Shown here: positions 524 to 52,424 of the stretch, one piece after another
Position numbering within the stretch: position 1 is the stretch's first letter
Layout of the letters: every line of letters starts with the position of its first letter
DNA from: Candidatus Anstonellales archaeon
GTDB lineage: Archaea > Micrarchaeota > Micrarchaeia > Anstonellales > CG1-02-47-40
NCBI GenBank assembly: GCA_038869735.1
Contig: JAWCQO010000005.1
Location: 7,538-71,537, forward strand
Length of the DNA stretch: 64,000 nucleotides
Reading direction: 5' to 3'
Made by a program: the position numbers and the translations under genes
The notes under the pieces: generated by a model
Databases searched by the model: none
What the model saw: the letters and a program-made list of their open reading frames with translations, nothing else
What the model was told of the DNA's origin: nothing

Positions 524-542
524 AAAAGTAGACAAGCTAAAC

Positions 543-16460: not shown

Positions 16461-16685
16461 ATCCATTCCCTCTTCTGGAGCTTGCGGTTTTCTCAAAATC
16501 CTTAAAAACACTTTTTTCTGAAGTTCTGGTGCTTGAATGTGTTTAGACTGGCTCTTTCTTGCGCTATCTAACTTCTAATCTTTGCTTTCTATAGTTGTTG
16601 CTGCCTATAGGGTAATAATATTGCCACAATATTGAAAACGAAGGATATAGGCTTCCTTGCGCTATCTGCCTCTAATCTTTGCTAT

Positions 16686-19600
16686 CTAAGTTTCCTCCTC
16701 GCATTTTAGCTGTTGATTTGACACAACGTTTGCAAAGACGCATGACTTGGAGATGTCAAGTCCGGGTTTACATGCTGGAACGTCTCTTCCTCTGTTTCCA
16801 TATATGATTGGGGTTACGTCTCTCCCTGCTACTTCCATTTTTGCATAGGTATGGTATACCTTTTCGTCAGGCTGAATCTGCCCGTCGAGATTGCTGTCCT
16901 CTTCGCTTGCTATGCAACACCTCATGGATGGAGGAAGTGACGCAAGATACTCAATGTACAGGAAGGATTCGTCTTGTTCTGTTTCTGGGTTGTTATAAGA
17001 CATATTCTGAATGGAGGGTGGTTCTTTTACCGTGCCGTCAGTATAAGTACACTTAACAAAATCTTGAGATTCGTCCCCATCGTAAGACGGATTTGTACAG
17101 AGTCTCTCGCTGCATACCTCTCTTCTTGCGCATAGAAGTGGGCATTTATAGCCGTAAGGCCAGTCATCTCCTGCTGGAATATCACACATAGAGCCATCTG
17201 CACAAATATTTGAAACGCCGGCTGTCTGCTCTGACTTTGTTCTTCTTTCACATGTGCACTTCTGGCTATCTGCAACCAATCTAACATAAGTCGTTTTTGT
17301 TGATAAGTCAACGGTGAGCCTTGAGGCGTTTTGAATCACGCAAAATGGCTGCTCCTCTGGAGAGAGAGTCTCATTAAAACCATAAGGTTGGAGTTCATTT
17401 CTTGGCTCATGGATTCCTATAATTCCACTGGAGGATAAGTTTGACGAGAGTTTTATTAGCTCCTGAATCAGTCGCGCCCTGTCTATATCTTGCCAGCTGT
17501 CACACTGAGGAGCCTCTGTTGCCCTTTCTCCAAAGTATATGAGGGATGGTAAGTTGAAATCCATAAGAAGCTTTCTTGAAGCGTTTGTCAAGTTTGTTGC
17601 CATCAGGAGCGCTTGCTCTTCCGGGGACAGCGCGCAGAACGACGGATTTCCTCCTGAATAATAAGCCATTTCGGGAATATAGGGCATTATGATTATCAGG
17701 TCAAGCTCTTTTAAAAATTCAGTGTCTATCGTACCTGGCGAGGGCGTGTGCACTACTCTTTTGTAAGTTATCCCGTTAATTGTTTGTACGTTTCCGTCTG
17801 CCTGCTCATTTAGGAGCAAGGCATAAGAAATTGCATTAACGTCTTGCATTGGAATAGCCTCGCCATCTAAAGTCGGTGAAACGCCTCTAAGGGCAGGAAT
17901 TATGACTGCAGTTAGGGCGTGAGGAAACTTGCGTTTGTAGTATATGACTTTGTTTTTTATGTCTTCTATCTTAGAGGTGTTTCGCAGAAGGTACTGTTGT
18001 CCGTTGTTGTTTAGAATTGTAACCTCTGAGAGGTTAATAGTGTGAAGAGCAAGTATTGTTGTTCCTTGGTCCTTTAGGTATTTTGCAAGATTTGCTGGAA
18101 GAAATGTGTCGAATTTGTTTTGTGGTGAGAGTCTACAGGAGTAATAGGAGTAACATTCTGAAGGATTGTGTTGCTCGCACCACCCGTTTGATGCACAGGC
18201 ACTACCGGTCCATTCACATGATGGAGAATCTTCGCATCGAAGCATGGTTTTGTCTTCGCAGTCGCCTATACAGGAAAAAGAAGTTACATTTGCTAAATAC
18301 GGAAGCGTGTTTGGAACAACAAGAATTGGAAGAGTGGAGGCTTTTTGATATTTTTGTATTTTTACATGGAGGTAGTTTGGGTCTGGCAAAAACGAGGGAC
18401 CTTGGGCAGTCATTGTTGGATGGGGTGATTGGTTGGGTTGTTCGTCTTGGACATACACTGTCACACCCTTTGCGTCTGTGTCGTTGTATGACTTAAAGGG
18501 AGAGGGAGGCGCACAGTCATAACAATATCCATTGGAAGCTGTGCATTCCCCATAGCTCTCGCTTTGAGTAAGGCAAACTGGAGTGTTTTGCTCGGTAGGC
18601 GAAATTTGTTGCACTGCACTGGTAGAAAGTGAGCAGGGCTCGCACCCTCCCCAAGAGTAGATGAGAAGTTGGCCTTCGCGCTCTGGGTCGGAAAGACAGT
18701 CTCCAAAAAGGATTTTTCCAGCATCTTGGCCTTCTCCTTGGTGTGGAGTGATAAGCACAAGGGTTTGGGTTCTTGTTGGTTCCCAGAAAAGTTCATGGGG
18801 CCACCAATCTAAACTGCCTCCCTCATGATCAAAGAATTTAAGCTCGAAAATAGTGAATGTGCCGTATCTTATGTGAAAATCAGTTCCAAGCCTCATGTTG
18901 CAGGCGCTAAGAAGTGGTATTCTTTGTTTTATTTCTTGTTCTGTGTAGTGGGAGTTGTACAGGACAGTATAGGCACGAGAAGTTTCATTAGAAGTCGTTG
19001 TTTTGGACATGTCTATCTCTAGCGGGCCTTCGAGTCTGTTGTTCTCGTACCAGTATCTGCAATTATAATGGTTATCGCCTATCTGACCAACTCCTTGTTG
19101 ATTTTCACCACTGCCTACTGAAATTGAGTGACAGATATACAGCGTATCAGACCACCTATCATTAGGGAATAGAGTTCTTTCATCTGGAATTGGTGGAATT
19201 GCTCTTTCAGGCTGTCCTTCGTATGGGCAGAAGTCTTGATTTCCAAGGCCTTGATAACCTCGGGAGTCTCCGTCTCTAGAAAATGAATAAGTATTGCCGT
19301 CAATTGTAGCAGTACAGCGAAAGGTTTGGGAACTGCCGCTGTTAGAAAAGTTGCCTCCTGTGCAAACATAACATGCTGAACCGACCGATGTATCTCGCGG
19401 ATGAATAGTAGCTCTCATAGGAAGTTTTTCGTTAGCAGAAAGAGCGTTTACCTTGCACTTTGTCTTTCCAAAGCTATCGATGTAGCAGCCGCAGTCAACG
19501 GGCGTTCCGTCTTTAAGAATGCATTTGTTGGTTGGGAGTATATTCTTGTTGCAGATGCCAGAGTAGCACTCCCCGTTTGATTGGCAAAGCGCACTTGCGC

Positions 19601-20981
19601 CCGGAATTATGTTTAGGATTTTTGAGTTGCGATTATCACACAGTTCTGGCCCTACCTGCTCTTCGTTGTCAAGCCTGTTGTTGGAATTTTCATCCAAGTA
19701 GCAAACGCAGCCTGGTTCTGGGCAGTAGCCGTTTGCTATTTCAAATTCGTATTGTTCTTTTATTTTGGAGATATAATAATCGGTGTCTATTTTTTTTGTA
19801 GTCTCTGTTGCGTAAAGCGTGCCATTGGGCCTTGAAATATTTAATTTTTCTTCTGTTGTTACATATTGACTTCTTGCTAAGAATGGTAGATATACTCTCT
19901 CATCAGCCTGTCCTGTTGGGAGAGAGCATGAACGCTGTGGGTAGCAATTATCCATGCACGCTCCTTTGCTTGAGTACTGCTTTCCTGTGCTGGCACAAGT
20001 CCACTTTATTCTCTTTACTATGGATATGTTAAACTCCTTTGTCCAGTGGCACTCGCCGCCGTCGCCGTATTTATAGTCCTCGCATGGTGTTCCCCTTAGA
20101 AGCTCATCTATGTTTGAATAACAGTTTGCTGTTATAAGTACACCCGAAGGAGAATTTACGGGGTGGGCTTCGCCCCATTTAGTTGTATACCCGATAAGGT
20201 AGCCTTTGAGTGGCCCTGATGCAAACTGCCGCTCAACGTAATTTAGATATCTGTCTTTTTGGTATTTGTTATAATCACTAAAGCCGCAGAAGACATCTGA
20301 GATGGGAGTATAAAGGCGCGCCTCTTCGAATGTTGAGAAATTGTTTGCGACTCCAAAGCGGAATGTGTTTATGAACGCTGTCGGAGACGACTTAAATTCC
20401 CTATTTGTCTCTTTGTTGAGTGGCTTGAAAGAACAGAAAGTTCCAAACAGCCCCTCCGGAACATCTGTAAAATCAAAAGAAGAAGTAGAGAAGGCGGTTG
20501 GGTTTAGGTCTTGTGGTTGGGGTAGTGCTCGGTCTCGTGCATTAAGGTAGTCAGACAAACTCATAGATATGCGTGGGTTATAGGAGGTCCTGCCGCAAAT
20601 CATTGCCGCGCAGTCTGGCGCTATACAGGGGTCAGATGGAATTTGGCCGCAAACGGGGATTTTGCTGTCTACACCATTGACACAGCCTGGTGGACACCAT
20701 TGAGGATTTCCATTTGCATCTGCTGGACAGATAGAAGGGTCGCAGTAATATGTGCAGTTTAGCCTTTCATTTTCGGGACCTAAATCTGATATGCTTGGGC
20801 ATTCAAGCCTCTGGCTTCCATTGAGGCTTAGAACATCTCTACATTGAAAGCTTGAGGTGTAGTTACCTGAAGCGCAACAAGAAGTGTATGCGGTTTGAGC
20901 AACGCATCCGACAAGAAAAAGGAGAGGGGATATCACTAAAATGAACGAGCCGATTGATGCCGAAACTGAAATCTTTTTCAT
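16686..20981 (-). CDS. Giant (1431 aa) secreted cysteine-rich protein. It is the last gene of the seven-gene surface operon. It has an N-terminal signal peptide and no C-terminal anchor.
   Basis: Start MKKISVSASIGSFILVISPLLFLVGCVAQ. Cys-rich throughout with many N-x-S/T sites. Only 4 nt separate it from the upstream gene. Confidence 0.75.
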   Translation of the reverse strand: MKKISVSASIGSFILVISPLLFLVGCVAQTAYTSCCASGNYTSSFQCRDVLSLNGSQRLECPSISDLGPENERLNCTYYCDPSICPADANGNPQWCPPGCVNGVDSKIPVCGQIPSDPCIAPDCAAMICGRTSYNPRISMSLSDYLNARDRALPQPQDLNPTAFSTSSFDFTDVPEGLFGTFCSFKPLNKETNREFKSSPTAFINTFRFGVANNFSTFEEARLYTPISDVFCGFSDYNKYQKDRYLNYVERQFASGPLKGYLIGYTTKWGEAHPVNSPSGVLITANCYSNIDELLRGTPCEDYKYGDGGECHWTKEFNISIVKRIKWTCASTGKQYSSKGACMDNCYPQRSCSLPTGQADERVYLPFLARSQYVTTEEKLNISRPNGTLYATETTKKIDTDYYISKIKEQYEFEIANGYCPEPGCVCYLDENSNNRLDNEEQVGPELCDNRNSKILNIIPGASALCQSNGECYSGICNKNILPTNKCILKDGTPVDCGCYIDSFGKTKCKVNALSANEKLPMRATIHPRDTSVGSACYVCTGGNFSNSGSSQTFRCTATIDGNTYSFSRDGDSRGYQGLGNQDFCPYEGQPERAIPPIPDERTLFPNDRWSDTLYICHSISVGSGENQQGVGQIGDNHYNCRYWYENNRLEGPLEIDMSKTTTSNETSRAYTVLYNSHYTEQEIKQRIPLLSACNMRLGTDFHIRYGTFTIFELKFFDHEGGSLDWWPHELFWEPTRTQTLVLITPHQGEGQDAGKILFGDCLSDPEREGQLLIYSWGGCEPCSLSTSAVQQISPTEQNTPVCLTQSESYGECTASNGYCYDCAPPSPFKSYNDTDAKGVTVYVQDEQPNQSPHPTMTAQGPSFLPDPNYLHVKIQKYQKASTLPILVVPNTLPYLANVTSFSCIGDCEDKTMLRCEDSPSCEWTGSACASNGWCEQHNPSECYSYYSCRLSPQNKFDTFLPANLAKYLKDQGTTILALHTINLSEVTILNNNGQQYLLRNTSKIEDIKNKVIYYKRKFPHALTAVIIPALRGVSPTLDGEAIPMQDVNAISYALLLNEQADGNVQTINGITYKRVVHTPSPGTIDTEFLKELDLIIIMPYIPEMAYYSGGNPSFCALSPEEQALLMATNLTNASRKLLMDFNLPSLIYFGERATEAPQCDSWQDIDRARLIQELIKLSSNLSSSGIIGIHEPRNELQPYGFNETLSPEEQPFCVIQNASRLTVDLSTKTTYVRLVADSQKCTCERRTKSEQTAGVSNICADGSMCDIPAGDDWPYGYKCPLLCARREVCSERLCTNPSYDGDESQDFVKCTYTDGTVKEPPSIQNMSYNNPETEQDESFLYIEYLASLPPSMRCCIASEEDSNLDGQIQPDEKVYHTYAKMEVAGRDVTPIIYGNRGRDVPACKPGLDISKSCVFANVVSNQQLKCEEET

Positions 20982-20985
20982 GTAC

Positions 20986-22026
20986 TCATATCACCTTTGA
21001 TATAGCTGAAGTAAGTTCTCCTAATTCCCCTCCAAGGAGTGGTGTTATTATGCGCACAAAAATAAGAGTTAGAGCAAAAGCAATAAATGGATAGTACATT
21101 ATACCGATGGTAAGGGTTGCAAGCTCTGATGAGAAGAGTTCAAATGTACTTCTGCTTATGTCAACGTTCTGGGTTATTGTTGAAAGTGTAACTGATGCGC
21201 CAGAAAAACCGGCATAGCATGCATTGAACACCTCTGTTTTTGGAGTGACGTCTATATCGCCGGATCCGTGAGCATATGCTGGATCCATAACGACATAGAA
21301 TGCAGGGAGTATAAAATAAAAGCCCATCGCAACGGCTATAAGAAGGCCTCCGGCCCCTCTTGTAAATTGAAATATTCGAAGGAGGATGCCAAGAGGAAGA
21401 AAAACTGACAGCATATTCTTCTCTATATAATCGAGGAAGATGTATTGCGCGTGTAGATGGATAAGGAGTGGAGTTATTTTTGAGCCAAGAAGATGGGCGC
21501 GCTCAACATCTCCACGCAAGAACCAGTCACCGCAGTAAACCTGAATGCCTACAAAGCTCAAACAAAATGCAGCTTGCTTTTCGGTTTCTTTGTTTTGTTC
21601 AAAAATTCTCTGATACATTTTGTCAAGAAAGTTTATTTTTTCCTGTATTCTGCACTTTGCAAAGGATATTGGGTTTCCGATTATAAGTCCGTTTTGGTCG
21701 ATTGAAAATGTTATCGGCTGTCCTCCACACTCTATTGCGGTATCTTGGCCTATTATTATTGCAATGGTGATAAATGCGGCTAGGTTGACAAGATTTATAA
21801 GCATGACTATGAGGATTGATGATGCAGATGCCTGAAGCATCTCTGAAATGGCCCAGCGCTTTATATTTTCAAGAGATAATGACCTTCCAATGACGTATAC
21901 TATTGTAAAGAAGAAAATGCATAGTGCTACTGCTGAAAGCGCAACGGCATTCCACCCAAGGCCTTCCCAGACGGAGATGAGGCCTGTGGTTGAGCCATAA
22001 GATTGGAGGATGTATGCGGGCTCCAT
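20986..22026 (-). CDS. Paralog P6 (346 aa) of the new 5-TM membrane family; minimal form with about 105-aa extracellular loop
   Basis: Core motif LPLGILLRIFQFTRGAGGLLIAVAMGFYFILP; C-terminal tail LLGGELGELTSAISKVI. Confidence 0.7.
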   Translation of the reverse strand: MEPAYILQSYGSTTGLISVWEGLGWNAVALSAVALCIFFFTIVYVIGRSLSLENIKRWAISEMLQASASSILIVMLINLVNLAAFITIAIIIGQDTAIECGGQPITFSIDQNGLIIGNPISFAKCRIQEKINFLDKMYQRIFEQNKETEKQAAFCLSFVGIQVYCGDWFLRGDVERAHLLGSKITPLLIHLHAQYIFLDYIEKNMLSVFLPLGILLRIFQFTRGAGGLLIAVAMGFYFILPAFYVVMDPAYAHGSGDIDVTPKTEVFNACYAGFSGASVTLSTITQNVDISRSTFELFSSELATLTIGIMYYPFIAFALTLIFVRIITPLLGGELGELTSAISKVI

Positions 22027-23037
22027 TCATATCAACCTCGATAATCTTCCTGCATCAACCTCTTGTCCTAACAATCCTGAAACCTGCGATATAGCCGCAA
22101 CAACAACAATAAGATTGATGGAAGTTATAAAGACTGAACCAAAGAATATTAGAGTTGCATTTTTTATAAGGAAGATAACGTCTGTACCTTCTTGGATTGT
22201 AGAGGAGTAAATCGCTGGAAAGAAAAGGCCCTCCAACATCAAGAGGAACGGAAAGAAGATGTAAAGCGCGACTCCAAGGCCTATCAGGGAACCTCCAAAC
22301 ATGCGCATAAATGGTATGCTGCGAAGTATGATACCCCAAACAAGGCAGAAGATGAGAAAGGAGTTAGTATAATCGGTGCCTACAAGAAGAATGTTATAGA
22401 CGCCTATCTGCGCAAGGATGGTAGCAAGGGATATTAGAGACGAGTTCATAAACAAAGTGAGAACTGCGTTGTGTGCCTGCACTCCGGATTCTGGATTTAA
22501 AGAAACTCCAGAACCCCCAAGGATGCAGAGGGTTTTGCAGTTCCATAGTGTGAGAGTCAATTTCCTTTCATTTAGGCCTATAATTTCGCGTAGATTATAA
22601 AACGTAGAATAGGAGATTGTTTGCATATAGACTAAAAACTTTTTTGCTGCAGTGTAGACGTTGTCTGACTCCTGAAAATCTACATTGGCTTGAGATTCAA
22701 TAGGTATCTGCGGAAGGTTGGTGAGCGTTACTGCGCTTCCTACCTCAATAGAGCAGAAGAGCGTCAAAATTTGGAGTATTAGTGCAATTATAATGGCAGT
22801 GCTGATAAGTTGCATAACTTCATCTTTTGACCAGGCCACTAGCCGAGGATAGCTGAGAAACTCTCCAGCAGCATATGTTATTGCTATCAGTCCTGCAAGT
22901 GCCGCAAATCCCGCGGTTGCGTAAGAGATTGCAGGCGAAAATAGATTTTGTGGCTGCTCACATATCGCTTGTTGGGAAAATGCAAACCCTCCGAGGGCAA
23001 GAACAAAAAATAATAGTGTGTTGTTTGTTCTTATCAT
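22027..23037 (-). CDS. Paralog P5 (about 336 aa). The likely start is at 23037 (MIRTNNTLLFF...), overlapping the P4 stop as ATGA; the longest ORF reaches 23097.
   Basis: Signal-like N-terminus; core motif ILRSIPFMRMFGGSLIGLGVALYIFFP; tail LLGQEVDAGRLSRLI. Confidence 0.7.
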   Translation of the reverse strand: MIRTNNTLLFFVLALGGFAFSQQAICEQPQNLFSPAISYATAGFAALAGLIAITYAAGEFLSYPRLVAWSKDEVMQLISTAIIIALILQILTLFCSIEVGSAVTLTNLPQIPIESQANVDFQESDNVYTAAKKFLVYMQTISYSTFYNLREIIGLNERKLTLTLWNCKTLCILGGSGVSLNPESGVQAHNAVLTLFMNSSLISLATILAQIGVYNILLVGTDYTNSFLIFCLVWGIILRSIPFMRMFGGSLIGLGVALYIFFPFLLMLEGLFFPAIYSSTIQEGTDVIFLIKNATLIFFGSVFITSINLIVVVAAISQVSGLLGQEVDAGRLSRLI

Positions 23038-24317
23038 TGCGACAACCTCACAAGGGTCGATATGTCTATTTGAGAGCCAAACATTGCTGCAAGCCACTGG
23101 ATAAACAGAAGCGTTATTGTTAGGTTCAGCGCAGTCGCAAATATGGAGCGCAGATATACTTGAAAGATGAGTGGTTCAAAGTTGTAAATGCTTTTGTTAT
23201 CGCCTATTTCTGTTTGGCCGATTAATGGTTCGATGAATTTTTCGCGTGTGCTTGCGTAGGAAAAATCAAATGGGTCGCATGTTTGAGTGCGAATCGTATT
23301 TGCAAGATTAGAATTTTGGTTGCTTCTGTAAGCTTGCAAGTACTCATTAGAGTCTAAAATTTCTCCAAAAAGAATTTTTTCTGAAAAAAGGAAAGTAAGC
23401 GGCAGGACAAGGTATAGCCCAGCTGCAAATGCTATTAACGTTCCACCTACTTTTCGCGTGAAGTTGAAAGTGCGAAGGAAGATTCCTATAGGAAGCAGGA
23501 TAGAGAAAGCATAATTCTTTGCAAAGCTCATGATAAGGAAAATTGCCTGAAAATCTGTAACAGCAAGAGACAATGATGTTGTCGCATGGGTGATGGAAGG
23601 GCGCATTGCATTTATGGCGGAACATGTGATTATTGAATACCCAACACCTAATATTGAGCAATAGCCGGATTTTGAGCCTTCTTGTCCCGATTTCTTTGAA
23701 ATTTCAAGATAGTTTGAGAGTAGGTCTTCGTAATTGCTCTTTACATCTTCAAGGGTTGCAAACGCGTAGTCATAAAATGTCCCCTCTACTTCTGCCCCAC
23801 CAGCTAAAGACTTAAATGCTGGGAGGAGAGAGGCGTCTAGATAATAAGCCATGCTAGTAAGAGAAGCTAGAATCAGTGCTGTAAAGATAAGTTGGGTCAG
23901 CTCATCTTTAGTATAGGTTTTTAGTTCAGTTATATTGAAGACGGAGCTACCCATATAAAGTAGCGATATTAATGAAGCGGAGATAAGAAAAGCTATGAGT
24001 ACTAGAGGAAGCCATTGTGACTGGCAACGGCAGTTAGAGCATGAGGCAGTTAAAGGACATCCGCCTCTTAGTTCTACTGCAGAAACTTCGCACTCCTCGC
24101 CTTGGTCAAGAACTCCGTTTCCACAGATTGGAAGCTGAACGTTGACGTTTTCTGCAATACATTCGCCGTTTTGGCAGATATAACCTTCTTGACATGGAGG
24201 GGAGCAGAGTGCAGCGTTTCCTCCTTCTCCAGCGGAGAAAAGAACAGCTGAGGCTAGGATAATGAAAAAGAGCTCAAGTATCAACGCCTTTTGTTGCTTC
24301 ATTTTGCTCCACATCAC
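23034..24317 (-). CDS. Paralog P4 (427 aa). It has a signal peptide, a small Cys-rich N-terminal ectodomain with one CGNGVLDQGEEC repeat, and the 5-TM core.
   Basis: ICGNGVLDQGEECEV. Core FLRTFNFTRKVGGTLIAFAAGLYLVLP. Tail AAMFGSQIDISTLVRLSQ. Confidence 0.7.
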   Translation of the reverse strand: MMWSKMKQQKALILELFFIILASAVLFSAGEGGNAALCSPPCQEGYICQNGECIAENVNVQLPICGNGVLDQGEECEVSAVELRGGCPLTASCSNCRCQSQWLPLVLIAFLISASLISLLYMGSSVFNITELKTYTKDELTQLIFTALILASLTSMAYYLDASLLPAFKSLAGGAEVEGTFYDYAFATLEDVKSNYEDLLSNYLEISKKSGQEGSKSGYCSILGVGYSIITCSAINAMRPSITHATTSLSLAVTDFQAIFLIMSFAKNYAFSILLPIGIFLRTFNFTRKVGGTLIAFAAGLYLVLPLTFLFSEKILFGEILDSNEYLQAYRSNQNSNLANTIRTQTCDPFDFSYASTREKFIEPLIGQTEIGDNKSIYNFEPLIFQVYLRSIFATALNLTITLLFIQWLAAMFGSQIDISTLVRLSQ

Positions 24318-26614
24318 AAAAATCTTGATATTCCCGGAAGTTCTATATCTCCTCCGAATGTTTGGGAAAAAACTCTAATGAATGCTATCAAGACAACTAT
24401 ATTAAAGAGTGGAAGAACGTAAGCAGGAATTGCAAGCACACCTACATTTTTTGTGTCACTCATGGTTGTTTTTGCTCCTGTCTGGCTGGATATAAAGCCT
24501 GCAGGGGTAAAATCGCGTGAAGCGGCGGTTGGGAGATTGCAAACTTCTGCACAATTTGTCCGTATTGGGGGTATTGTGGTGCAGTCATCATCACATTTGA
24601 GGCACGAAGTGCAAAGTGATGGCGGTGAGTCTGTTGTGAAATTGCTTTTGCATTCCTTGTTGCAATATGGTTCAAGGCAACTTGCGGGACAGTTTATGTC
24701 TCCAGCGTCTGCAACTCTGCACCTTTTTGGGCATGCAGAACATGTTCCGTCGGGTTGTGGTTGTATTGAGCCGTAGTTTTGACGAGTTGGAAAGTTTGCA
24801 CAGTTTTGAGAGGGAGAGGGGATCTGAATTCCACAATAAGCTCGACAGGCAACACAGGAAGGGTTGGTCCTACAATGTAATTGGAAGTAGTTGTCAGCGT
24901 CCTCATTGTCTTGGATGTTGGCGATGCGGCATTCGCGCTGGCAGCTTCCGCAAAGGGTAAGGCAGTCAAGTAGTTTTGGGTCTGGAATCCCTATCCTGCA
25001 GTTTGGTTCGTTTTCGCTTCTTCCCATTGGGCAATGTTCTTCTGTACATTCCTCGCATGCTTTCCAGACAGATTCTCCGTTTTCCTGCACTGGAAAGTCT
25101 GATGGCTTTGGAATTCTCCAATAGCCATCGACGGGGTCGTTTGGGTCATCATCTGACTTATCATCCGGATAAAGTGGATTGAAGTAATAAACACGACAAA
25201 AGTCTGGGCATAGTGTGCACTTGCCTTGGCATTCTGGCGACATATAACTGACTGAATTTATTATTGCACATCCAGATATATAGCAGCCATCTTGAGAATC
25301 TTCTATTCTATTTGCTCTGGAGCAAGTATTTTCACCAAATAACTGTTTGATTTCCTCCGGGGGGTCGGGTTTTTCGTCATCAGAAAAACATGTTGTCCTC
25401 TCGCGATAAGGGACATATGCTTGGTTGTCTGAATTCAGCTTACTTTTTCCTCCAACCTTACACTCGTCCGGGCAAGTGGAGCAAACGGCCCGTACATCAA
25501 CGTCCTTAACTATTTGACCTGCGTGTTCAGAGTCTTCTGCTATGAGATCTGATTTGGTGCAAGAAGGATTTTGGATAGGATAGGGAATTTCTCTACATAT
25601 GGAGGGACATGAGAGGATTACGGTTTGGCCAGTTATAGTCTCACCTTCTTGATTTACAACCATTTGATTTGTCAGTTGTCTCTTGCAACTTCCAAGCTCT
25701 TCGCAAGTGTTTATTTTCGGTGGGTTGAAAGTGCATTCTCCAGGACAATAATCTGGAGGTGGGGAGACCATCTGGTCTCCAAACACTGCAACTTTTAGAG
25801 TAAACCAAGAAAAGACGTAGAGCATTGGCCAGACTAAAAGCAGGGATATTCCGATTGCAAGTAAAAGCCCTCCTAATCTGCGCGAAAAGAAAAATGTGCG
25901 GAGGATAACTCCATAAAAAATGAGCACAGATGAAAGAGATGCTGACTGCGGGTTATTTGTTGAAGCCAGATTGGATAGAAAGCTTTTTTGGGTGGCAAGC
26001 GAAGAGTATATCCCTGAGAGAACATCGAAGTTGTATGAATATCTTTCTGTGTACATGGAATAGCCGGCATTTTTTCCTGAATAATAAGCGGCCCAGAGTG
26101 TGTAGTACGTGTTGGTAGACACTCCTTCTCGCTCAGAGGATTTTTTTGCATTTTCAAACGCATCTATGAGATTTGATTTTAGCGTTGAGTTTGTAATTGA
26201 AAGAAGCGAATCTAAGTAGCACAAACCAAGCGAGATTACATACGGCTGATTCTGGATGGGTTGGCAGGCAAATTGGCCTGCTGTTATTGATAGTAGAAAC
26301 GAAGAAAGGAACGAGAAAATAGCGATAAGAGAGATTATTATCAGAGCTGAAGCAAAGACTTGTGAGAGTTCTGTATTTGCCCAGACTTTTATTTCTGGGA
26401 TGTTTAGCCCTATCCCAACAATATATGCAATAGAAACGATGGATAAGGAGATGGCCAGCGCGATTATTGATGCCGATTGCCAATTTCCATTTCCAAGAAA
26501 TTGATTATATGTAAGATCTATGGGGGATAGCTGTAGGAGTGGCTGTGGGTACGAGAAAGTAGAGAATAGCAAAAGAACGAGGAGGATCTGCGTCTTTTTT
26601 AATTTTGTATTCAT
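24314..26614 (-). CDS. Paralog P3 (766 aa). The 5-TM core carries an about 420-aa Cys-rich ectodomain inserted between TM4 and TM5 rather than at the N-terminus.
   Basis: Core VILRTFFFSRRLGGLLLAIGISLLLVWP is followed by a long Cys-rich region. Final TM and tail: FIRVFSQTFGGDIELPGISRFL. Confidence 0.7.
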   Translation of the reverse strand: MNTKLKKTQILLVLLLFSTFSYPQPLLQLSPIDLTYNQFLGNGNWQSASIIALAISLSIVSIAYIVGIGLNIPEIKVWANTELSQVFASALIIISLIAIFSFLSSFLLSITAGQFACQPIQNQPYVISLGLCYLDSLLSITNSTLKSNLIDAFENAKKSSEREGVSTNTYYTLWAAYYSGKNAGYSMYTERYSYNFDVLSGIYSSLATQKSFLSNLASTNNPQSASLSSVLIFYGVILRTFFFSRRLGGLLLAIGISLLLVWPMLYVFSWFTLKVAVFGDQMVSPPPDYCPGECTFNPPKINTCEELGSCKRQLTNQMVVNQEGETITGQTVILSCPSICREIPYPIQNPSCTKSDLIAEDSEHAGQIVKDVDVRAVCSTCPDECKVGGKSKLNSDNQAYVPYRERTTCFSDDEKPDPPEEIKQLFGENTCSRANRIEDSQDGCYISGCAIINSVSYMSPECQGKCTLCPDFCRVYYFNPLYPDDKSDDDPNDPVDGYWRIPKPSDFPVQENGESVWKACEECTEEHCPMGRSENEPNCRIGIPDPKLLDCLTLCGSCQRECRIANIQDNEDADNYFQLHCRTNPSCVACRAYCGIQIPSPSQNCANFPTRQNYGSIQPQPDGTCSACPKRCRVADAGDINCPASCLEPYCNKECKSNFTTDSPPSLCTSCLKCDDDCTTIPPIRTNCAEVCNLPTAASRDFTPAGFISSQTGAKTTMSDTKNVGVLAIPAYVLPLFNIVVLIAFIRVFSQTFGGDIELPGISRFL

Positions 26615-29119
26615 TTACATCCCTATTTCAGAAACCTTACGGATTGCGGATGCAAACCCATGCACTGAGGTTATTATTATAATTATCGCGAGATTCGGAA
26701 GAAAAACGGCTTGTGGGAGAAGCAAGGCGAGCGTTTTAAAGGAAACGTGTGGGTCTGCAGCAATATAAAATGAATCAAGAACTTGGCTTGTTAGAGGATA
26801 TGTGTTTGCGAAGAGGGTATAGATTGCTGGAAATATTAAGTAAAGTGAAAAGCAGAGTGCCATAAGATAGTTTCCTGCGGTCCTGGTTGGTGGAAGGACT
26901 CTTAGAAAAATTGCAAAGGATAGGAAGAGTACTATTATTGGTTGGTTTTCTTGAGGGGTGGAAATGAAAAGAAGCCTAAATAGTTCTAACTGGAGTTTTA
27001 TGCTGACTATCATTGGTATGAGCAGGTCTATCATCACTTCCTGGGATTGTGAATACGCTCTCCTGATTGCGTCTTTTGATTCTCCTTTGCCACCTTTAAA
27101 TGGAATGCCAACAAAGAGATAGTTTGTTGCTTTGAGTTGATTAGTAAGACTACCTTCAGTTAGACGTTGAACTTCTGCCGTTCCGATTCTTTGAAGAGAG
27201 TCAAGGTATTTTGTTGAGTAAACGTACATCGTTGTACCTTCCGGGACATTTAAAAATGAGCCTATGACGGCGTTTGAGTTTTCAAGAAAGTTTGTTGCTA
27301 GAATCAAAACGGCAAAAATAGCTGACCAACCAAGATGCACTGCTTCGTCTCTTAGCAATATGTCAAGATGTACATTGCCTCCGAAATATTTTGAGTACAT
27401 AAATGCAAGGGCTATGAGCAGGACGATTAAAAAAAATGCAGAGTGCACCAGTGCAGCGATGTTGCCTGAGCTAGGGCAGTCCTGTTGACAATAGACAGGT
27501 TCTGCTCCTTCACATCTGCCGTTTCCACATTCAAATGATGTTTGGATGCACCTGCAAGAATAGGGGTCGCAACTAAACTTTTCACTACAGTTGTTTTCTA
27601 TTCCAGGATCGCACTCTTCGCCTTGGTCAAGAACTCCGTTTCCACAAAGCATTTGAGGAGGCTGTTTAGTTATTAAAACCTCCTTGCTTTCTTGCGCTGA
27701 GATTATGCTATCTGAATAGATAATCGACGCTTTAAACACCAGTGTTTTTCCTTCTGAGCAGGACTCATAGAGTGGGCATACTATTGACCTTGTTAGTTGT
27801 TGGTCTGCCTGTACTTGTGTAGAGCCACTTAACAGCACTTCGGATGAAGATTCTGAACGGATTACCCACTCCCACTCAAGACTTTGGGGGCTAACACCTT
27901 CTGGAGACGGAATGGTGATCCGTAATGATGGTGATTGTGACTCTGTGGCGGGGTTTGGCGTAATGTCAGAAAGAATTGGAGGGGGATGTTCTGGCACTAA
28001 TTCATCTATAGTAGCTTCGTCAAATGTTTCATTGGAGGTGTAGCGTTCTCCTTGGCCATAAGAAAGAGTTGCATAAAACCTAAGAGTTGAACGATCAGGG
28101 CAACCGTTATCCAGATTGAAGCAGTAGTAGGTTTGATATGAGTAATTTGTTGTTCCTCTTCTGTAGGCCTGTGTTCCTTGATGAATGGTTACACTCATTC
28201 CGTCCGGTTGCGTTAATTCGAAGCGCCAGTTTATAGTGTTGGGCTCAATGATGTTTTCAGGTATTGTGACGATTCCGTTAAAAACGTCTCGGGGATTCGC
28301 ACGTTTTGGTTTAATTGAAACTGATGGTGGGAGGATAGGTTCATAGTATGCATCGTCAGATTGAGAGTAATCAGTGCAAGCATAAACAGAGCATGCCCTT
28401 ACACGAACATGAACGTTTCTTGGTGATGAGGCTGAGCACCCTGGATAGTCTGAGCATCTAAAAGACATTGCTGATTGGCCCTCCATCCATGGAGTTTCAA
28501 AGTCTGGTCCGTCTCCAAGATAGGCAACCCACTTAAATTGATAGATAAAGTTACTTGCGTCTCCCTGTCCGGCAGTGACAAGTTGACATGAGGAGCGGCC
28601 GGATATTTGGTTGCAATAATTTCTATTTGCGACAGTGGCTGAATCTATTCCTGAAGTGTATCCTCTGCATCGAATGTTCCACGGAGGTCCACTTTCGCCT
28701 TCAAGCCCTTCATCTGGGACACAAGAGTTTGAGTTTACATCCCAGTGACAACCGGCGGGTTGCTCTTGAAGAAAATAAGGAGCGTTATAATCGCTATATT
28801 GGGCACTCAAAGAATTACAATTATTTTGGTTTAGGATACTGCATCTTGCTTGTGAATTTTGAGCTCCCTGAGCAAGCTGGCATAATCTGCTGGCAAAATA
28901 ACTCCCTGCTCGGCAGCCTCCGCTCCAGTCATTGCTTATGCTAACTGTTGTTGAATACGAAGGAATTGAAATTAGTGTGAGCTCTGGTTTTTCTGGAATG
29001 CCGGACACAACATTACCGCCTGCACCCTCGTCATCATCACCGATTATGCAATTTTGTGACATAAGAAATTGAGCAGCAAATACTAGAAAGAGCAGGATGA
29101 AACTATAGGGGCTTTTCAT
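26615..29119 (-). CDS. Paralog P2 (834 aa). It has a signal peptide, an about 520-aa Cys-rich N-terminal ectodomain ending in CGNGVLDQGEECD, and the 5-TM core.
   Basis: LCGNGVLDQGEECDPGIENNC. Core AIFLRVLPPTRTAGNYLMALCFSLYLIFP. Tail SAIRKVSEIGM. Confidence 0.7.
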   Translation of the reverse strand: MKSPYSFILLFLVFAAQFLMSQNCIIGDDDEGAGGNVVSGIPEKPELTLISIPSYSTTVSISNDWSGGCRAGSYFASRLCQLAQGAQNSQARCSILNQNNCNSLSAQYSDYNAPYFLQEQPAGCHWDVNSNSCVPDEGLEGESGPPWNIRCRGYTSGIDSATVANRNYCNQISGRSSCQLVTAGQGDASNFIYQFKWVAYLGDGPDFETPWMEGQSAMSFRCSDYPGCSASSPRNVHVRVRACSVYACTDYSQSDDAYYEPILPPSVSIKPKRANPRDVFNGIVTIPENIIEPNTINWRFELTQPDGMSVTIHQGTQAYRRGTTNYSYQTYYCFNLDNGCPDRSTLRFYATLSYGQGERYTSNETFDEATIDELVPEHPPPILSDITPNPATESQSPSLRITIPSPEGVSPQSLEWEWVIRSESSSEVLLSGSTQVQADQQLTRSIVCPLYESCSEGKTLVFKASIIYSDSIISAQESKEVLITKQPPQMLCGNGVLDQGEECDPGIENNCSEKFSCDPYSCRCIQTSFECGNGRCEGAEPVYCQQDCPSSGNIAALVHSAFFLIVLLIALAFMYSKYFGGNVHLDILLRDEAVHLGWSAIFAVLILATNFLENSNAVIGSFLNVPEGTTMYVYSTKYLDSLQRIGTAEVQRLTEGSLTNQLKATNYLFVGIPFKGGKGESKDAIRRAYSQSQEVMIDLLIPMIVSIKLQLELFRLLFISTPQENQPIIVLFLSFAIFLRVLPPTRTAGNYLMALCFSLYLIFPAIYTLFANTYPLTSQVLDSFYIAADPHVSFKTLALLLPQAVFLPNLAIIIIITSVHGFASAIRKVSEIGM

Positions 29120-31162
29120 TTATATCAACCTATAAAGACCAATTATTCTGGTATCGCCTCCAAGAACTTCTGATGTGCCTTTGGTCATTACGACCGTTAT
29201 AAAAACTGTTAAGAGGATGGATATTAGCGCATTTGTGTAAAAGCCAGATATTAGATGTAGAACTGATTCAAGAGGGGAGTAATAGTCTGAAATGAGCTCT
29301 GATTGAGATATTGCTGCATAGTTATAGAGTGCTGGCCCAAATGGAAGCGGGAATCCCTGCACAATTGCAAGGTAAGTTAGCTTTACTATGTTCGCACATG
29401 AAAAGAAGCCGCCTGCAGTGGCAGGATTTGACAGAAGAATACTACATATGAGCCACTCATAGAAGTCTTCTCCGGGTAAAACGAACAGCGCAAATGTAGA
29501 TGAACACACTAAACTTTGTGCTGGTGGACTACCGGGATCAAAATCAGTTGCATTTTTTATTGAGTTTAGGTCTAAGTTTGTTTGTGTATAGGCCCATGAG
29601 GCAAAAACGATACTGGCAGGAAACCAAAGATATGCTCCAATACACACAGCAATAAGGGTAGTACCTACCCTTCTTGTTAATGGAAATGTTCTTAGGGCAA
29701 ACGCAGCTGGTAGAAGAAGTGTTGGGATTGTTGATGAGAAAAAGTAAAGAAGCATTTTTTGTATTGAAAAGGCATATATTATTTTTGATAAATTATCCAA
29801 AGCTTGGAGGATGCTTGAGGTTAGGATAGATAGTCCAGCTGATGGAGAACGGGATATAAATTTATTTGAGTAAAACGGAATAAGTGGAGTGCTTAATGAA
29901 TAAGAAAAACTTGAAATCTTTGAAATGTAAAAGTTTACTTCAGCCAGATAGTTTATTGAATTTCTCGAATTCTGGATAAAGTAATCAATGTGAGAAATCG
30001 CAGCTGAAGTCATATCTGGAGAACCCGTAATCGCACTTGCAAATGTCTCTATTCCAGCTATAGCAATAATGGTGGCAATTATTAATGCTGCACTTGCAAA
30101 AACCTCTCTAAATTCTGATTTTGACCAAACGTGGAGTTGGATTGAGTTGGTAAATTCTGCAAGCATATAGGCAATGGCTGAAATTACGACGGCTGCAAAA
30201 AGACCTATTAGGATTATTGGTGAAATAGCGATTTGGACTGCATTGCCAAATAGGCGCGGGGCTGAAACGCACTGGCAACTTTCACAAATAAAGGCGTCTG
30301 CACATTGGTTGGTGTATTCACACTGTTCGTTTTCTTCGTCAATTATTCCGTTTCCACAATAAGGTGGGTTTGCTCTAGCCACTTCATTTACTGACACACA
30401 AGAACAGGAGAAGCATCTCTGACCGACTTGGCAGTCTGCATCTGAATCGCACTCTTCGCCTTGGTCAAGAACTCCGTTTCCACAGCTGGATGTGAAAGTA
30501 TAGGGATTGAAATCTCTAATTGATTCACATGTGCAATTTTGAGAGCATGTGTAGCCTGGAGCACAATTGTTTGTGTTTATGTCGCATTCCTCTCCAGCAT
30601 CTAAAAATCCATCACCGCACTGTGGTCCAAAAGCTATCTGTTCGGCTGTTGGGCTGCATTGGTTATTTAGGCAGGAATATCCTGCTTTACAATCAGCATT
30701 TGTTAGGCATGATGTTTTGCATGTGCAAGATTGCGAGCAGACGTATGCGCCACAGTTGAGGTTTTGTTCTTTGTCGCATTCCTCTCCAGCATCTAAAAAT
30801 CCATCACCGCATACTGGAAGGGAAGATACGCACTGGCAACTTAGAGGATCGCAGAGTTGTCCGCTTTTGCAGATTATTTTAGAATCAGCCGGGTCACACT
30901 GTTCCCGTCCCGTAATTTTTCCGTCGCCGCATACTGAGTTATCCTGTACGCACTGGCATCCGGGGTTACAGTAAAAGCCGAATGGGCAATCGCTGTGAAT
31001 TTCGCATTGCTCTTGTGGTTGCTCGACTATTCCGTTTCCGCATATGTGAGCAGGGGGGCTACTTTGAGCAAAGAAAACTCCGCTTGAAAGGAGAAGAGTG
31101 AAAAATAGTATGGCGAATATGGAGCGCTTGTCAAAAATCACAAAGCCAAGCATCATAAACAC
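29120..31162 (-). CDS. Paralog P1 (680 aa), first gene of the operon. It has a signal peptide, six DUF4215-like Cys-rich repeats in the N-terminal ectodomain, and the 5-TM core.
   Basis: Repeats CGNGIVEQPQEQCE, CGDGKITGREQCD, CGDGFLDAGEECD x2, CGNGVLDQGEECD, CGNGIIDEENEQCE. Core FALRTFPLTRRVGTTLIAVCIGAYLWFP. Tail LGGDTRIIGLYRLI. Confidence 0.7.
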   Translation of the reverse strand: MFMMLGFVIFDKRSIFAILFFTLLLSSGVFFAQSSPPAHICGNGIVEQPQEQCEIHSDCPFGFYCNPGCQCVQDNSVCGDGKITGREQCDPADSKIICKSGQLCDPLSCQCVSSLPVCGDGFLDAGEECDKEQNLNCGAYVCSQSCTCKTSCLTNADCKAGYSCLNNQCSPTAEQIAFGPQCGDGFLDAGEECDINTNNCAPGYTCSQNCTCESIRDFNPYTFTSSCGNGVLDQGEECDSDADCQVGQRCFSCSCVSVNEVARANPPYCGNGIIDEENEQCEYTNQCADAFICESCQCVSAPRLFGNAVQIAISPIILIGLFAAVVISAIAYMLAEFTNSIQLHVWSKSEFREVFASAALIIATIIAIAGIETFASAITGSPDMTSAAISHIDYFIQNSRNSINYLAEVNFYISKISSFSYSLSTPLIPFYSNKFISRSPSAGLSILTSSILQALDNLSKIIYAFSIQKMLLYFFSSTIPTLLLPAAFALRTFPLTRRVGTTLIAVCIGAYLWFPASIVFASWAYTQTNLDLNSIKNATDFDPGSPPAQSLVCSSTFALFVLPGEDFYEWLICSILLSNPATAGGFFSCANIVKLTYLAIVQGFPLPFGPALYNYAAISQSELISDYYSPLESVLHLISGFYTNALISILLTVFITVVMTKGTSEVLGGDTRIIGLYRLI

Positions 31163-31192
31163 TAGACATAATTAATTTAAATTGATTTCTAA

Positions 31193-42141: not shown

Positions 42142-42858
42142 TCAGGGATTTTCTGCTTTTGCAATATAACCGCCTTTTAGGAGCCTATCAAGTGCTTGTT
42201 CAACGCGGACTTCGGAGACGCCGTGTGCCTTCGAAAAGGAACTTATACGTATTCTACCACCATGTATCTTTATCCAATCAAAAACCATACATTCAAGCTC
42301 AGTGTCGGATATTCCATCAATTGAATCAAGACGTTTTTTTAGTATTGAATTTGTTTTTTCAAGTTCCATTCTGATTGAGCTTTCCTTTTCCAATAATTGC
42401 GACATTGTCTTGTACTCTTTAGATAGGCGTCTGCATTCTGCTGTCAATTTTTCACATTGGTTGGAGAGGATTTCCTGCTGGGTGTTTGTAAGCTTAAGAA
42501 GATGGTCTATTGGACCTCTGAGGATGGAATGGGCTTGTGAAAGAGGTATATTATAGCAGTTGCAGATGGCGAGTATGTCAAATAAATTAAGTAGCATTGA
42601 GAGGCGACGCGTGAGGTGTCTCTCTGATTCAGTTGTAAATTCAAGTTCAAATCCAGTGGGCATTAAAGAAAGAGTCCAAAAAGCGCGTGGATTGCCAATG
42701 AAGTCTTGTGATTCTACATGGGTTATACTAATAGTATCTGAACTCTTTAATGGGCGAAAGCCGATGGAGGAGAGGTTCTTAATTAGTTCGTCTGCGTTTT
42801 TTGTGCGCTTGCATTTGAGGCTAATTTTTTCTGTTTGTAATTTCAATCTAATCACCAT
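42142..42858 (-). CDS. Hypothetical protein with a C-terminal winged-helix, co-operonic with the VirB4-like ATPase
   Basis: C-terminal HGGRIRISSFSKAHGVSEVRVEQALDRLLKGGYIAKA; it overlaps the ATPase stop. Confidence 0.5.
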   Translation of the reverse strand: MVIRLKLQTEKISLKCKRTKNADELIKNLSSIGFRPLKSSDTISITHVESQDFIGNPRAFWTLSLMPTGFELEFTTESERHLTRRLSMLLNLFDILAICNCYNIPLSQAHSILRGPIDHLLKLTNTQQEILSNQCEKLTAECRRLSKEYKTMSQLLEKESSIRMELEKTNSILKKRLDSIDGISDTELECMVFDWIKIHGGRIRISSFSKAHGVSEVRVEQALDRLLKGGYIAKAENP

Positions 42859-44347
42859 CCAAAGTTAGTGTTGCGAGTTTATCAGCATCGGCTCCGAGAC
42901 GAGAACGCTGAAGGGTAGAAAAGAGGCTTAAAAGTGATGCCTCTGGCGCTCCGAGTTCTCTGAAGAGTGATAGAATCCGTGTTCTTGCAAAACCATATTT
43001 TTCGAGTAAGGAGACGAGTTCCTGTGCAGGAATAGTGTTGCCAGACAGTGAAAACCTTAAAAGGATCTCTGAAACCTGTTCGTCTTGAAGGCCGAATAAG
43101 TGTAGCTTTCGCCTCAGCTCTTCTTTTTCAAATTCGAATTTCATTCCATCACCCCGCAGAGATAGGAGCACGAAAGGCTCTTCACCATCAATTTTTTTTA
43201 TTATAAACGTTGTCGAGCTCGTTGTTTTTTCTTTCCGTATTAGATGAACTGCGGCTGACCCAACGTTGAAGGTTGATATCTGTTTGGCTATTTCATCAGA
43301 ATAAGCTAAGGAGGAGCGGACGTAGTCTTTGTATTCATGAAGAAGAAGACGAAAGATGAAAATTGTTCCTGCATTTGAGAGGATTGTTTTGCTTATATCG
43401 GTTGGATTTTGCGATGCCACTATGAGAGAGAAGCCGTACTTTCTTCCTTCTCTTATCAGAGAAACGGCATCGCTCTTTTCATCTTGAGCTATTTTCCATG
43501 CTTCGTCAAGCACAACAAACAGCCTTATTTTATCTTCTTGAGTTGGTTGGCTGCGCATTAATTCAATTATGAATTGGAGGATAGTGAGGCCGGCTAGGCT
43601 TCTTGATTGCTCTGAGGGTAAGCTATGGAGGTCTACGCATACTAAGCCTGAAGAAGCAAGCTGTAAAATGCTAGTTGTAGATTTTCCAAAAAAGAAGTTC
43701 TGGTTTGGGGAACATAGTTTCTCAAGTCGGTATATGCATTCTTCAATATCGTCCTTTTTCTGTTCACTTTTTGCTTTCTTCAAAAAAAAGTGAAGATGGT
43801 CAAAAACATCTGCAATTGTAGGGACTCTGTTTTTTGAACATTTATATGCCTGGCGAAAAGCTTTCTCAGTTATTCTTTTTTGTGATGGATAGTTGGAAAT
43901 GTCTGTGAGTATTTCAAGCGCATCTATTATCTGGGTTATTCGTTCCTCCTTTTCTCCTATGCAGTCAAGAAGGTTGAGGCTATGCCCTTCCTTAAAGCTT
44001 ATTATTTTTCCACCAACTTCCCGTACCCATGGCACATATTCTCCTGACCAATCAAGAATTAGTGCGTTTGCGCCCCAAACGAGACTTGCCCTTACCAGGA
44101 ATGTCTTTATAAGGTAGCTCTTCCCGCTTCCGGATATACCTAAGATTACTATGTGTGGATTTGCAAGGAGTGCCGGATTCCAGAAAAATGGGGTTGAAAA
44201 AATAGAGGTTCTGCCAACGTAAATTGAATTTGAAGGGTTGTTTGAAAGGAAGGTAATGGGAGGTTCCTCTTCTGAAAAAAAGATCTGTCTACTATCAAAA
44301 TCAGAGGTAAAAAACCTCTCTAAATTGATATTACCCATATTAAGCAA
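42848..44347 (-). CDS. VirB4/TrbE/HerA-like (DUF87/AAA_10) P-loop ATPase
   Basis: Walker A ILGISGSGKSYLIK; Walker B LFVVLDEAWKIA (the DEAW box typical of VirB4); an Arg-finger region. Confidence 0.75.
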   Translation of the reverse strand: MLNMGNINLERFFTSDFDSRQIFFSEEEPPITFLSNNPSNSIYVGRTSIFSTPFFWNPALLANPHIVILGISGSGKSYLIKTFLVRASLVWGANALILDWSGEYVPWVREVGGKIISFKEGHSLNLLDCIGEKEERITQIIDALEILTDISNYPSQKRITEKAFRQAYKCSKNRVPTIADVFDHLHFFLKKAKSEQKKDDIEECIYRLEKLCSPNQNFFFGKSTTSILQLASSGLVCVDLHSLPSEQSRSLAGLTILQFIIELMRSQPTQEDKIRLFVVLDEAWKIAQDEKSDAVSLIREGRKYGFSLIVASQNPTDISKTILSNAGTIFIFRLLLHEYKDYVRSSLAYSDEIAKQISTFNVGSAAVHLIRKEKTTSSTTFIIKKIDGEEPFVLLSLRGDGMKFEFEKEELRRKLHLFGLQDEQVSEILLRFSLSGNTIPAQELVSLLEKYGFARTRILSLFRELGAPEASLLSLFSTLQRSRLGADADKLATLTLDGD

Positions 44348-44348
44348 C

Positions 44349-48390: not shown

Positions 48391-48421
48391 AAGCGAAGGT
48401 AATACGACTATAAGTTATAAA

Positions 48422-52390: not shown

Positions 52391-52424
52391 GATTTGAGAT
52401 AGGTTGTTTTAGTATAAAAAGAAG

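Follow-up and report, generated by a model that had tools for sequence, protein, structure and literature searches.

Six membrane paralogs and a giant cysteine-rich protein in a conserved operon of a Candidatus Anstonellales archaeon, with weak similarity to CedA and CedE

Seven consecutive minus-strand genes in an archaeal genome raise the question of what six related membrane proteins and one giant cysteine-rich protein might build together. The genes, here called P1 to P7 in their order on that strand, occupy positions 16686-31162 of a 64,000-nt stretch of contig JAWCQO010000005.1 (assembly GCA_038869735.1, positions 7,538 to 71,537, forward strand). This whole stretch is referred to as the window, and all coordinates are those of the window unless a related locus is named. 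The host is a metagenome-assembled genome (MAG) of Candidatus Anstonellales, an order within the phylum Microcaldota (formerly Micrarchaeota), and is thus the DPANN-type archaeon that a previous sequence-only reading of the window had suspected. The database entries identical to P6, P4 and P7 (QXN01_00585, QXN01_00575 and QXN01_00590) are all annotated as "hypothetical protein".

As called, the seven open reading frames (ORFs) encode 680, 834, 766, 427, 356, 346 and 1431 amino acids (aa). With the preferred start codons and the predicted transmembrane (TM) segments, they and the sequence upstream of them can be described as follows.

31169..31181, minus strand: TTTAAATTAATTA, which resembles a TATA box and precedes the ATG of P1 by about 20 nt, as read from the sequence.
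29120..31162, minus strand: P1, 680 aa from a GTG codon but probably 678 aa, started at ATG 31156; signal peptide, six cysteine-rich units of DUF4215 type at aa 41-282 and a 5-TM core at aa ~306-680; orthologous to gene "a" of the related loci L001 and L002.
26615..29119, minus strand: P2, 834 aa; signal peptide, a 524-aa cysteine-containing ectodomain with one CGNGVLDQGEECD unit, and a 5-TM core at aa ~551-834.
24314..26614, minus strand: P3, 766 aa; the family core with a 430-aa ectodomain (43 cysteines) between TM4 and the last TM helix.
23034..24317, minus strand: P4, 427 aa (422 aa from the NCBI start); signal peptide, a short cysteine-rich ectodomain with one DUF4215-like unit, and the core.
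22027..23037, minus strand: P5, 336 aa from ATG 23037 (356 aa as an ORF); core only.
20986..22026, minus strand: P6, 346 aa; core only, and the best conserved of the six paralogs.
16686..20981, minus strand: P7, 1431 aa; a signal peptide with a conserved, lipobox-like G-C at its end, 73 cysteines and 20 N-glycosylation sequons.

The six junctions between these genes measure, in order, 0, 0, -4 (an ATGA overlap), a further ATGA overlap when P5 is started at M21, 0 and +4 nt, and P2, P5, P6 and P7 are each preceded, at a distance of 5-9 nt, by a Shine-Dalgarno-like GGTGAT or GGTTGAT motif. On this layout the genes appear to be translationally coupled. Only a 30-nt spacer separates the operon from a divergent dihydrouridine synthase gene, and TTTAAATTAATTA, which may be the promoter of the operon, lies inside this spacer; the 3' end of the operon faces an archaeal 23S rRNA gene that is oriented toward it. 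The base composition of the operon is like that of the protein-coding rest of the window, a higher GC content being confined to the neighbouring rRNA gene. None of the seven genes is disrupted, and each agrees in length with its orthologs; they therefore show no sign of being pseudogenes. Pfam and NCBIfam scans of the seven proteins and a check for small ORFs revealed no ATPase, protease or pilin gene within the operon. The sequence-only reading had described a tightly packed, coupled seven-gene operon without an internal ATPase, protease or pilus component, and in all of these respects, including the coordinates and the gaps of 0-4 nt or ATGA overlaps, its description stands.

The same reading had taken the first six genes to be paralogous polytopic membrane proteins, which is borne out. 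The cores of P1-P6 are related to each other by BLASTP, with expectation values from 1e-15 to 1e-4, although the identity between paralog types is only about 20%, and a family hidden Markov model (HMM) run against the window detects exactly six members, P1-P6. An alignment of the six cores contains invariant residues at E62, L216, R217, R223, G226, L229 and P241 (P6 numbering), along with a core motif, LPLGIxLRxFxFTRGAGGLLIA, and a C-terminal tail of the form GG[DE]xxE..R[LI]. Five TM helices per core are predicted both from hydropathy and from an AlphaFold2 model of P6 (mean predicted local distance difference test (pLDDT) 68.8, predicted template modelling score (pTM) 0.62), which consists of five long helices with a small helix/beta ectodomain between TM2 and TM3 and a variable TM4-TM5 loop. 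Nearly all cysteines, including every cysteine-rich segment, fall in segments predicted to lie outside, and lysine and arginine are enriched in the loops predicted to lie inside. Since the signal peptides, the external cysteines and the short loops rich in lysine and arginine all agree, they indicate a topology with the N-terminus outside and the C-terminus inside. In this model the conserved residues are located on the predicted cytoplasmic face; they comprise the glutamate of the turn that connects TM1 to TM2, the LRxFxFTRGAGG hairpin that links TM3 with TM4, and the GG[DE]xxE...R[LI] tail at the C-terminus.

No Pfam model exists for this core family; P1-P6 cores have no Pfam match at E ≤ 1, no homolog of the core has a Pfam entry, and the named family members are all "hypothetical protein" without a Pfam domain. 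Profile searches of PDB sequences with alignments of 6 and of 135 family sequences gave no genuine match. One of the 135 representatives matches DNA polymerase III alpha models (E 1e-38) and is probably a chimeric or mis-called metagenomic protein; the DnaE matches in the PDB profile search are spurious because of this single contaminating alignment member.

Outside the core, the paralogs differ considerably. Cysteine makes up 5-15% of the ectodomains and 5.1% of P7, whereas its share in 13 cytosolic proteins encoded in the window is 1.4%. The sequence-only reading had assigned a large cysteine-rich ectodomain of DUF4215 type to each of the six, which is correct for P1, P2 and P4 only: CG[ND]G...C[DE] units were found in P1 (six), P2 (one) and P4 (one), and Pfam, NCBIfam and pattern searches detected none in P3, P5, P6 or P7. 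P3 has a cysteine-rich insertion of another kind, while P5 and P6 lack a large ectodomain altogether. With respect to the DUF4215 or myxococcal cysteine-rich acidic repeat (PF13948, TIGR02232), P1 scores above both curated cut-offs (30.1 bits for Pfam DUF4215, cut-off 27; 25.3 for TIGR02232, cut-off 20.8), and the single units of P2 and P4 are recognized by pattern and by 95-100% DNA identity to a P1 module, which is detailed here.

30446..30484, minus strand: 39-nt module in P1, encoding CGNGVLDQGEEC; its identity is 100% to P2 positions 27608-27646 and 95% to P4 positions 24087-24125.

Near-identity over these 39 nt in three genes indicates that the module was recently duplicated, or spread by gene conversion, inside the operon. 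The cysteine-rich domains are N-terminal in P1, P2 and P4, whereas that of P3 is inserted in the TM4-TM5 loop, and an insertion of this type is present in all type-3 orthologs. Most orthologs of P1, P2 and P4 have just 330-420 aa, and so the N-terminal cysteine-rich domains are interpreted as lineage-specific additions; the DUF4215 repeat is accordingly an accessory of this sub-lineage, missing from the family core and from most orthologs. Longer family members elsewhere contain CARDB, beta-helix/NosD or DUF11 ectodomains instead. When compared with the closest relative (L040), the ectodomains are 44-54% identical and the cores 60-65%.

The last gene had been described as encoding a giant secreted cysteine-rich protein, which agrees with the length, signal peptide and cysteine count of P7. 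Type-7 proteins have a signal peptide with a near-invariant, lipobox-like terminal G-C, and they have in common about 30 invariant or near-invariant cysteines as well as motifs such as TYGWCEPCTxSTLAxQ. The gene is always the seventh, and its giant size is constant across relatives. P7 has 14 sequons per 1000 residues, compared to 4.2 in cytosolic proteins of the window. No Pfam domain recurs among 27 type-7 proteins, P7 itself has no recognizable domain, and a P7 profile search of PDB sequences gave no match. Searches for P7 homologs yielded only four proteins; a model of aa 741-1240 built from four sequences reached a pLDDT of 39, was not used for fold searches, and displays just an alternating beta/alpha pattern. 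From its sequence, P7 is probably lipid-anchored, and it may be the extracellular, disulfide-rich partner of the six membrane proteins. The possibility that it is the micrarchaeal surface-layer (S-layer) protein was considered and rejected. That protein is of the PF05123 type and nearly free of sulfur amino acids (bioRxiv 10.1101/2021.04.28.441871), and no PF05123 match was detected among the 27 type-7 proteins, in addition to the 5.1% cysteine of P7.

The arrangement is not peculiar to this genome. Synteny in DPANN-like relatives, which the sequence-only reading had suggested looking for, was found in 37 related loci (2 metagenomic contigs and 35 loci from genomes of different GTDB species), in which ORFs were typed by their best BLAST match. 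As far as each contig reaches, the genes follow the order 1-2-3-4-5-6-7 with one-to-one orthology, the exceptions being ambiguous typing in the divergent L036 and split genes in L003 and L008. Almost all of these loci come from organisms named Micrarchaeota or Micrarchaeia, with one Bilamarchaeum, one Iainarchaeum-like name and two unclassified archaea. An exhaustive profile search for the core family returned 3,121 cluster representatives (at 50% identity) at E ≤ 1e-3 and 2,504 at E ≤ 1e-10; about 3,100 representatives divided among six paralogs correspond to roughly 500 operons. No earlier description of the operon or of the family was found in the literature searched on DPANN and Micrarchaeota genomics, cell surfaces or the Ced and Ted systems.

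The flanks in the relatives are worth describing in their own right. A protein of 1100-1800 aa, designated U, is encoded next to the operon in most relatives. It occurs at 1471-5733 of L001 and 1418-5572 of L002 (both minus strand), and it adjoins either gene 1 or gene 7 in 26 loci. Its signal peptide and short ectodomain are followed by a single TM helix and by a very long C-terminal region rich in glycine, alanine, arginine and glutamate. A small zinc-ribbon (DZR) protein, h, is directly beside the operon in many relatives, and has a homolog with 45-50% identity in the window (420-872, plus strand), about 16 kb from the operon end. The positions of U, h and a further flanking gene, i, can be accounted for by an apparent inversion of the operon block in different lineages, between flanks that stay constant, with U on one side and h-i on the other. 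Homologs of U and i were not found within the window.

Only two families recur when members of the core family are compared with named proteins. A one-by-one NCBIfam scan (18,950 models, threshold E ≤ 1) was conducted with 135 diverse family representatives; CedA was matched by 29 of them (best E 8.5e-8) and CedE by 21 (best E 1e-5), and other families by at most two each. By estimate, about 0.007 chance matches to any one named family would be expected across 135 proteins at this threshold. Within the window, P4 matches CedA (E 4.6e-4, 19.8 bits), the sole NCBIfam match obtained for the core. Two members align with CedA in one and the same register (P4 228-327 with CedA 103-200, and P0010 146-221 with CedA 107-183), and the aligned region covers the conserved TM3-loop-TM4 hairpin. 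CedA and CedE also head the lists, at lower rates, in two independent ortholog sets: 31 type-4 orthologs included three CedA matches (best E 1.4e-4), with one unrelated family tied at three, one at two and the rest at one, and 86 orthologs of types 1, 2, 5 and 6 included three matches to CedE (best E 9.8e-4) and one to CedA, with no more than two members matching any other family. The five helices predicted for the core are within the 5-7 TM range of CedA and CedE. CedA and TedA are VirB6-like, and CedA is the channel of the crenarchaeal DNA-exchange system (PMC9905601); CedE is a 5-TM CedA paralog and VirB6 structural homolog, needed for both DNA import and export (PMC11868833). The similarity is weak but specific, and suggests that the core family is a candidate remote relative of CedA and CedE and, through them, of VirB6. 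The sequence-only reading had called the family unknown, which is still correct insofar as Pfam is concerned, but needs to be qualified by this recurrent similarity.

A possible partner for such proteins is encoded about 11.7 kb away on the same strand, as a module of three genes spanning 42142..45125.

44349-45125, minus strand: protein of 258 aa with two TM helices and a soluble domain.
42848-44347, minus strand: VirB4/CedB-like ATPase of 499 aa, with Walker A (GSGKS) and Walker B (VVLDEA) motifs.
42142-42858, minus strand: protein of 238 aa with a weak C-terminal winged helix-turn-helix (wHTH).

The ATPase matches CedB (8.8e-25), VirB4-like CD1110 (4.3e-21), TraC (2.5e-18) and CedD, as well as the Pfam families DUF87, AAA_10 and TraG P-loop. 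Because its scores are below every equivalog cut-off, it is assigned to the VirB4/CedB/HerA clade and not treated as an ortholog of a named protein. The trio is kept as a unit in two metagenomic contigs (L038 and L039), and the pairing of the 2-TM protein with the ATPase resembles a split VirB3/VirB4 or CedB/CedD arrangement. It is a natural candidate for a motor of the operon complex, were such a complex to need one. Neither in or next to the operon nor near the ATPase module was a small 2-TM pilin-like ORF (of the VirB2-like CedA1/CedA2 type) detected. The only ATPase gene seen close to an operon in the relatives, about 4 kb downstream of it in L017 (12326-13837, minus strand), was considered as well, and was set aside as a HAS-barrel HerA-type helicase that is not an ortholog of the VirB4-like ATPase of the window.

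From the operon structure, the paralogy, the conservation in 37 loci, the pattern of cysteines and topology and the weak CedA/CedE similarity, we tentatively infer a type IV secretion system (T4SS)-derived, hetero-oligomeric envelope translocation channel with an adhesive, disulfide-rich exterior, a reading that we consider possible and prefer, albeit with less than even confidence. The fixed order of old paralogs, at about 20% identity, is what would be expected of non-interchangeable subunits of one complex. Six anciently diverged, VirB6-like 5-TM paralogs would come together in the cytoplasmic membrane in a fixed stoichiometry, in the simplest case with a single copy of each, and the resulting hetero-oligomer would be a channel or platform. 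Its conserved cytoplasmic face could serve as a gate, or as the site where a cytoplasmic motor docks; the VirB4/CedB-like ATPase module, although encoded apart from the operon, would be the obvious candidate for that motor. The outward parts (the TM2-TM3 loop, the cysteine-rich insert of P3, additions of DUF4215, CARDB or beta-helix type in particular lineages, and the putatively lipid-anchored P7) might form a disulfide-stabilized, glycosylated exterior that spans the space below the S-layer and touches the host cell. Such a complex may transfer macromolecules upon cell contact, and by analogy with Ced and Ted the default substrate would be DNA.

Several results weigh against a translocation channel of this kind. 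All CedA and CedE scores (NF041796 and NF053657) are far below the curated cut-offs, which for the CedA equivalog is 330 bits, and fold searches against the PDB gave no VirB6 match; homology of the core to CedA and VirB6 can for these reasons only be called remote and putative. Match rates to CedA and CedE are low in the two other ortholog sets, and the matches among family members are not independent of one another. No ortholog of the window ATPase lies within 10 kb of the operon in the 35 genome loci, no core-family member is within 10 kb of the trio in L039, and synteny links no motor, pilin or substrate-handling gene to the operon. The analogy to tandem VirB6 paralogs that was drawn in the sequence-only reading nevertheless proved useful as a lead: the VirB6-like CedA and CedE are the sole recurrent NCBIfam families among the 135 representatives, even if neither the Pfam scan nor the PDB fold searches returned VirB6 itself.

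A somewhat unlikely alternative is a structural surface scaffold or adhesin without translocation, in which the membrane proteins anchor the ectodomains and P7, and which serves attachment to a host or organization of the S-layer or pseudo-periplasm. The missing synteny with a motor, pilin or substrate-handling gene would be expected of a scaffold, and the ectodomains (DUF4215, CARDB, beta-helix) are the variable, adhesin-like part of a system whose giant component is rich in cysteines and sequons and bears a lipobox. However, the strongest conservation is seen in the membrane core and its cytoplasmic face and not in the ectodomains, and a large added ectodomain is absent from P5 and P6, as it is from a, b and d orthologs elsewhere. 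Display alone would hardly account for six distinct anchors in a fixed order, or for a similarity that is specific to CedA and CedE.

It is less probable still, and in our view unlikely, that the operon encodes a phylum-specific housekeeping machine for envelope biogenesis, be it S-layer assembly or anchoring, uptake or remodelling of membrane or lipid, or division, and that the likeness to CedA reflects a shared helical hairpin only. Gene order that is strictly kept in each of the related loci retrieved, nearly all of which bear the name Micrarchaeota, would suit such a role, as would the near-universal presence that roughly 500 operons suggest, the housekeeping genes on the flanks (Dus, TBP and 23S rRNA) together with a composition unremarkable for the protein-coding window, and the lack of a structural match to VirB6. 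On the other hand, no known biogenesis family is matched in Pfam or NCBIfam, the micrarchaeal S-layer protein is a different, cysteine-poor protein of the PF05123 type that P7 does not match, and the lineage-specific additions of adhesin type suggest a role that faces outward and adapts quickly.

A more specific version of the channel must be regarded as a long shot. A 21-nm barrel-shaped docking platform has been seen by cryo-electron tomography beneath the S-layer of the micrarchaeon ARM-1, where it is the entry point of host nanotubes (PMC11329633). A phylum-specific, pseudo-hexameric ring of six different VirB6-like subunits capped by P7 could conceivably be the symbiont-side gateway for cytoplasmic exchange with a host, for example that barrel, in which case a T4SS derivative would have been repurposed for bridging between species and not for conjugation.

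FtsX generally has four TM helices and both termini inside. The sequence-only reading had offered a permease topology of FtsX/MacB type as an alternative, and an array of ABC-type (FtsX/MacB-like) or other secondary permeases would suit polytopic proteins in which an extracytoplasmic loop is large and a TR.xG motif is conserved between two of the helices. Such an array is highly improbable, given the prediction of five TM helices with the N-terminus out and the C-terminus in, the lack of an adjacent ABC ATPase gene, and the finding that no FtsX/MacB or transporter family is matched by the window proteins at E ≤ 1 in Pfam or NCBIfam or recurs in 252 family sequences in NCBIfam.

VirB6 of A. tumefaciens has its N-terminus outside, five TM helices with a large extracytoplasmic loop after TM2, and its C-terminus inside. 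This is the layout predicted for the operon core, which in that respect is like bacterial VirB6/TrbL proteins such as R388 TrwI and A. tumefaciens VirB6. CedA, TedA and CedE have been tied to VirB6 by profile or structure comparison (PMC9905601, PMC11868833). The VirB6/TrbL Pfam family itself (PF04610) has no match at E ≤ 1 in P1-P6. Within the archaea, the closest comparison is with CedA and CedE of the crenarchaeal Ced system and TedA of Thermoproteales, which are also polytopic proteins of 5-7 TM helices; no family apart from CedA and CedE shows recurrent and register-consistent HMM similarity to the operon core (helix, TM3, loop, TM4). In Ced, too, a paralog (CedE) acts alongside CedA (PMC11868833), and a CedB/VirB4-like ATPase is also present in this genome. 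Unlike Ced and Ted, which are systems of Thermoproteota with one or two such proteins, the Micrarchaeota operon has six fixed paralogs, large cysteine-rich ectodomains and a giant putative lipoprotein partner, while CedA1, CedA2 or TedC pilin genes are lacking and the ATPase is not adjacent.

The rvhB6 paralogs of Rickettsiales have large added hydrophilic domains and belong to an obligate, genome-reduced symbiont. Tandem arrays of these VirB6 paralogs are described in PMC2653234. Several tandem VirB6-type paralogs with large added domains in a symbiont are thus a common trait, but the Rickettsiales are diderm bacteria with a full, scattered set of T4SS genes, and the arrays have an independent origin and unrelated added domains. 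Giant "SPEARE" proteins of nanohaloarchaea, which contain VirB4/TraG-like ATPase domains and have been proposed to act in host interaction (PMC10266531), are a further case, from a different DPANN lineage, of T4SS-derived parts combined with giant surface proteins. In that case the ATPase is fused to a single giant protein of immunoglobulin-like (Ig) repeats, there is no six-paralog array, and no sequence relationship to P7 was seen. Judged from its gene content, the operon is best classed as an organization not described before in the literature searched, with six fixed paralogs and a giant putative lipoprotein, no adjacent pilin or ATPase, and a distribution outside Thermoproteota.

The ways in which DPANN archaea hold on to their hosts and draw material from them are still poorly understood, and few of the proteins responsible have been recognized. 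As the operon is large, conserved in 37 loci, surface-exposed and possibly related to a family of translocation channels, it is a concrete and testable candidate for such proteins. If the link to T4SS is true, domesticated conjugation machinery of the Ced/Ted type would reach beyond Thermoproteota into DPANN, and the operon would be a second independent expansion of VirB6 paralogs in obligate symbionts, after that of the Rickettsiales.

The remainder of the window includes several other features. The 23S rRNA gene next to the operon is a complete archaeal one (13546-16462, plus strand); no 16S or 5S gene was found within the window, and the rRNA genes are therefore considered to be unlinked. 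A 91-nt tRNA (52424-52514, minus strand; Rfam 56 bits), for which ARAGORN reports an undetermined four-base anticodon, probably contains an intron. Between 56000 and 58000, GC skew flips from up to +0.39 to about -0.35 at an AT-rich stretch (GC 0.34), and this could reflect a replication origin or terminus, or a simple switch of gene strand. A polytopic membrane protein of 775 aa with a soluble N-terminal domain (48350-50677, plus strand) matches no Pfam or NCBIfam model. Finally, a protein of 462 aa (61764-63152, minus strand) that has no Pfam match combines an N-terminal TM anchor with a cysteine-rich C-terminal third, and may be another disulfide-rich surface protein.

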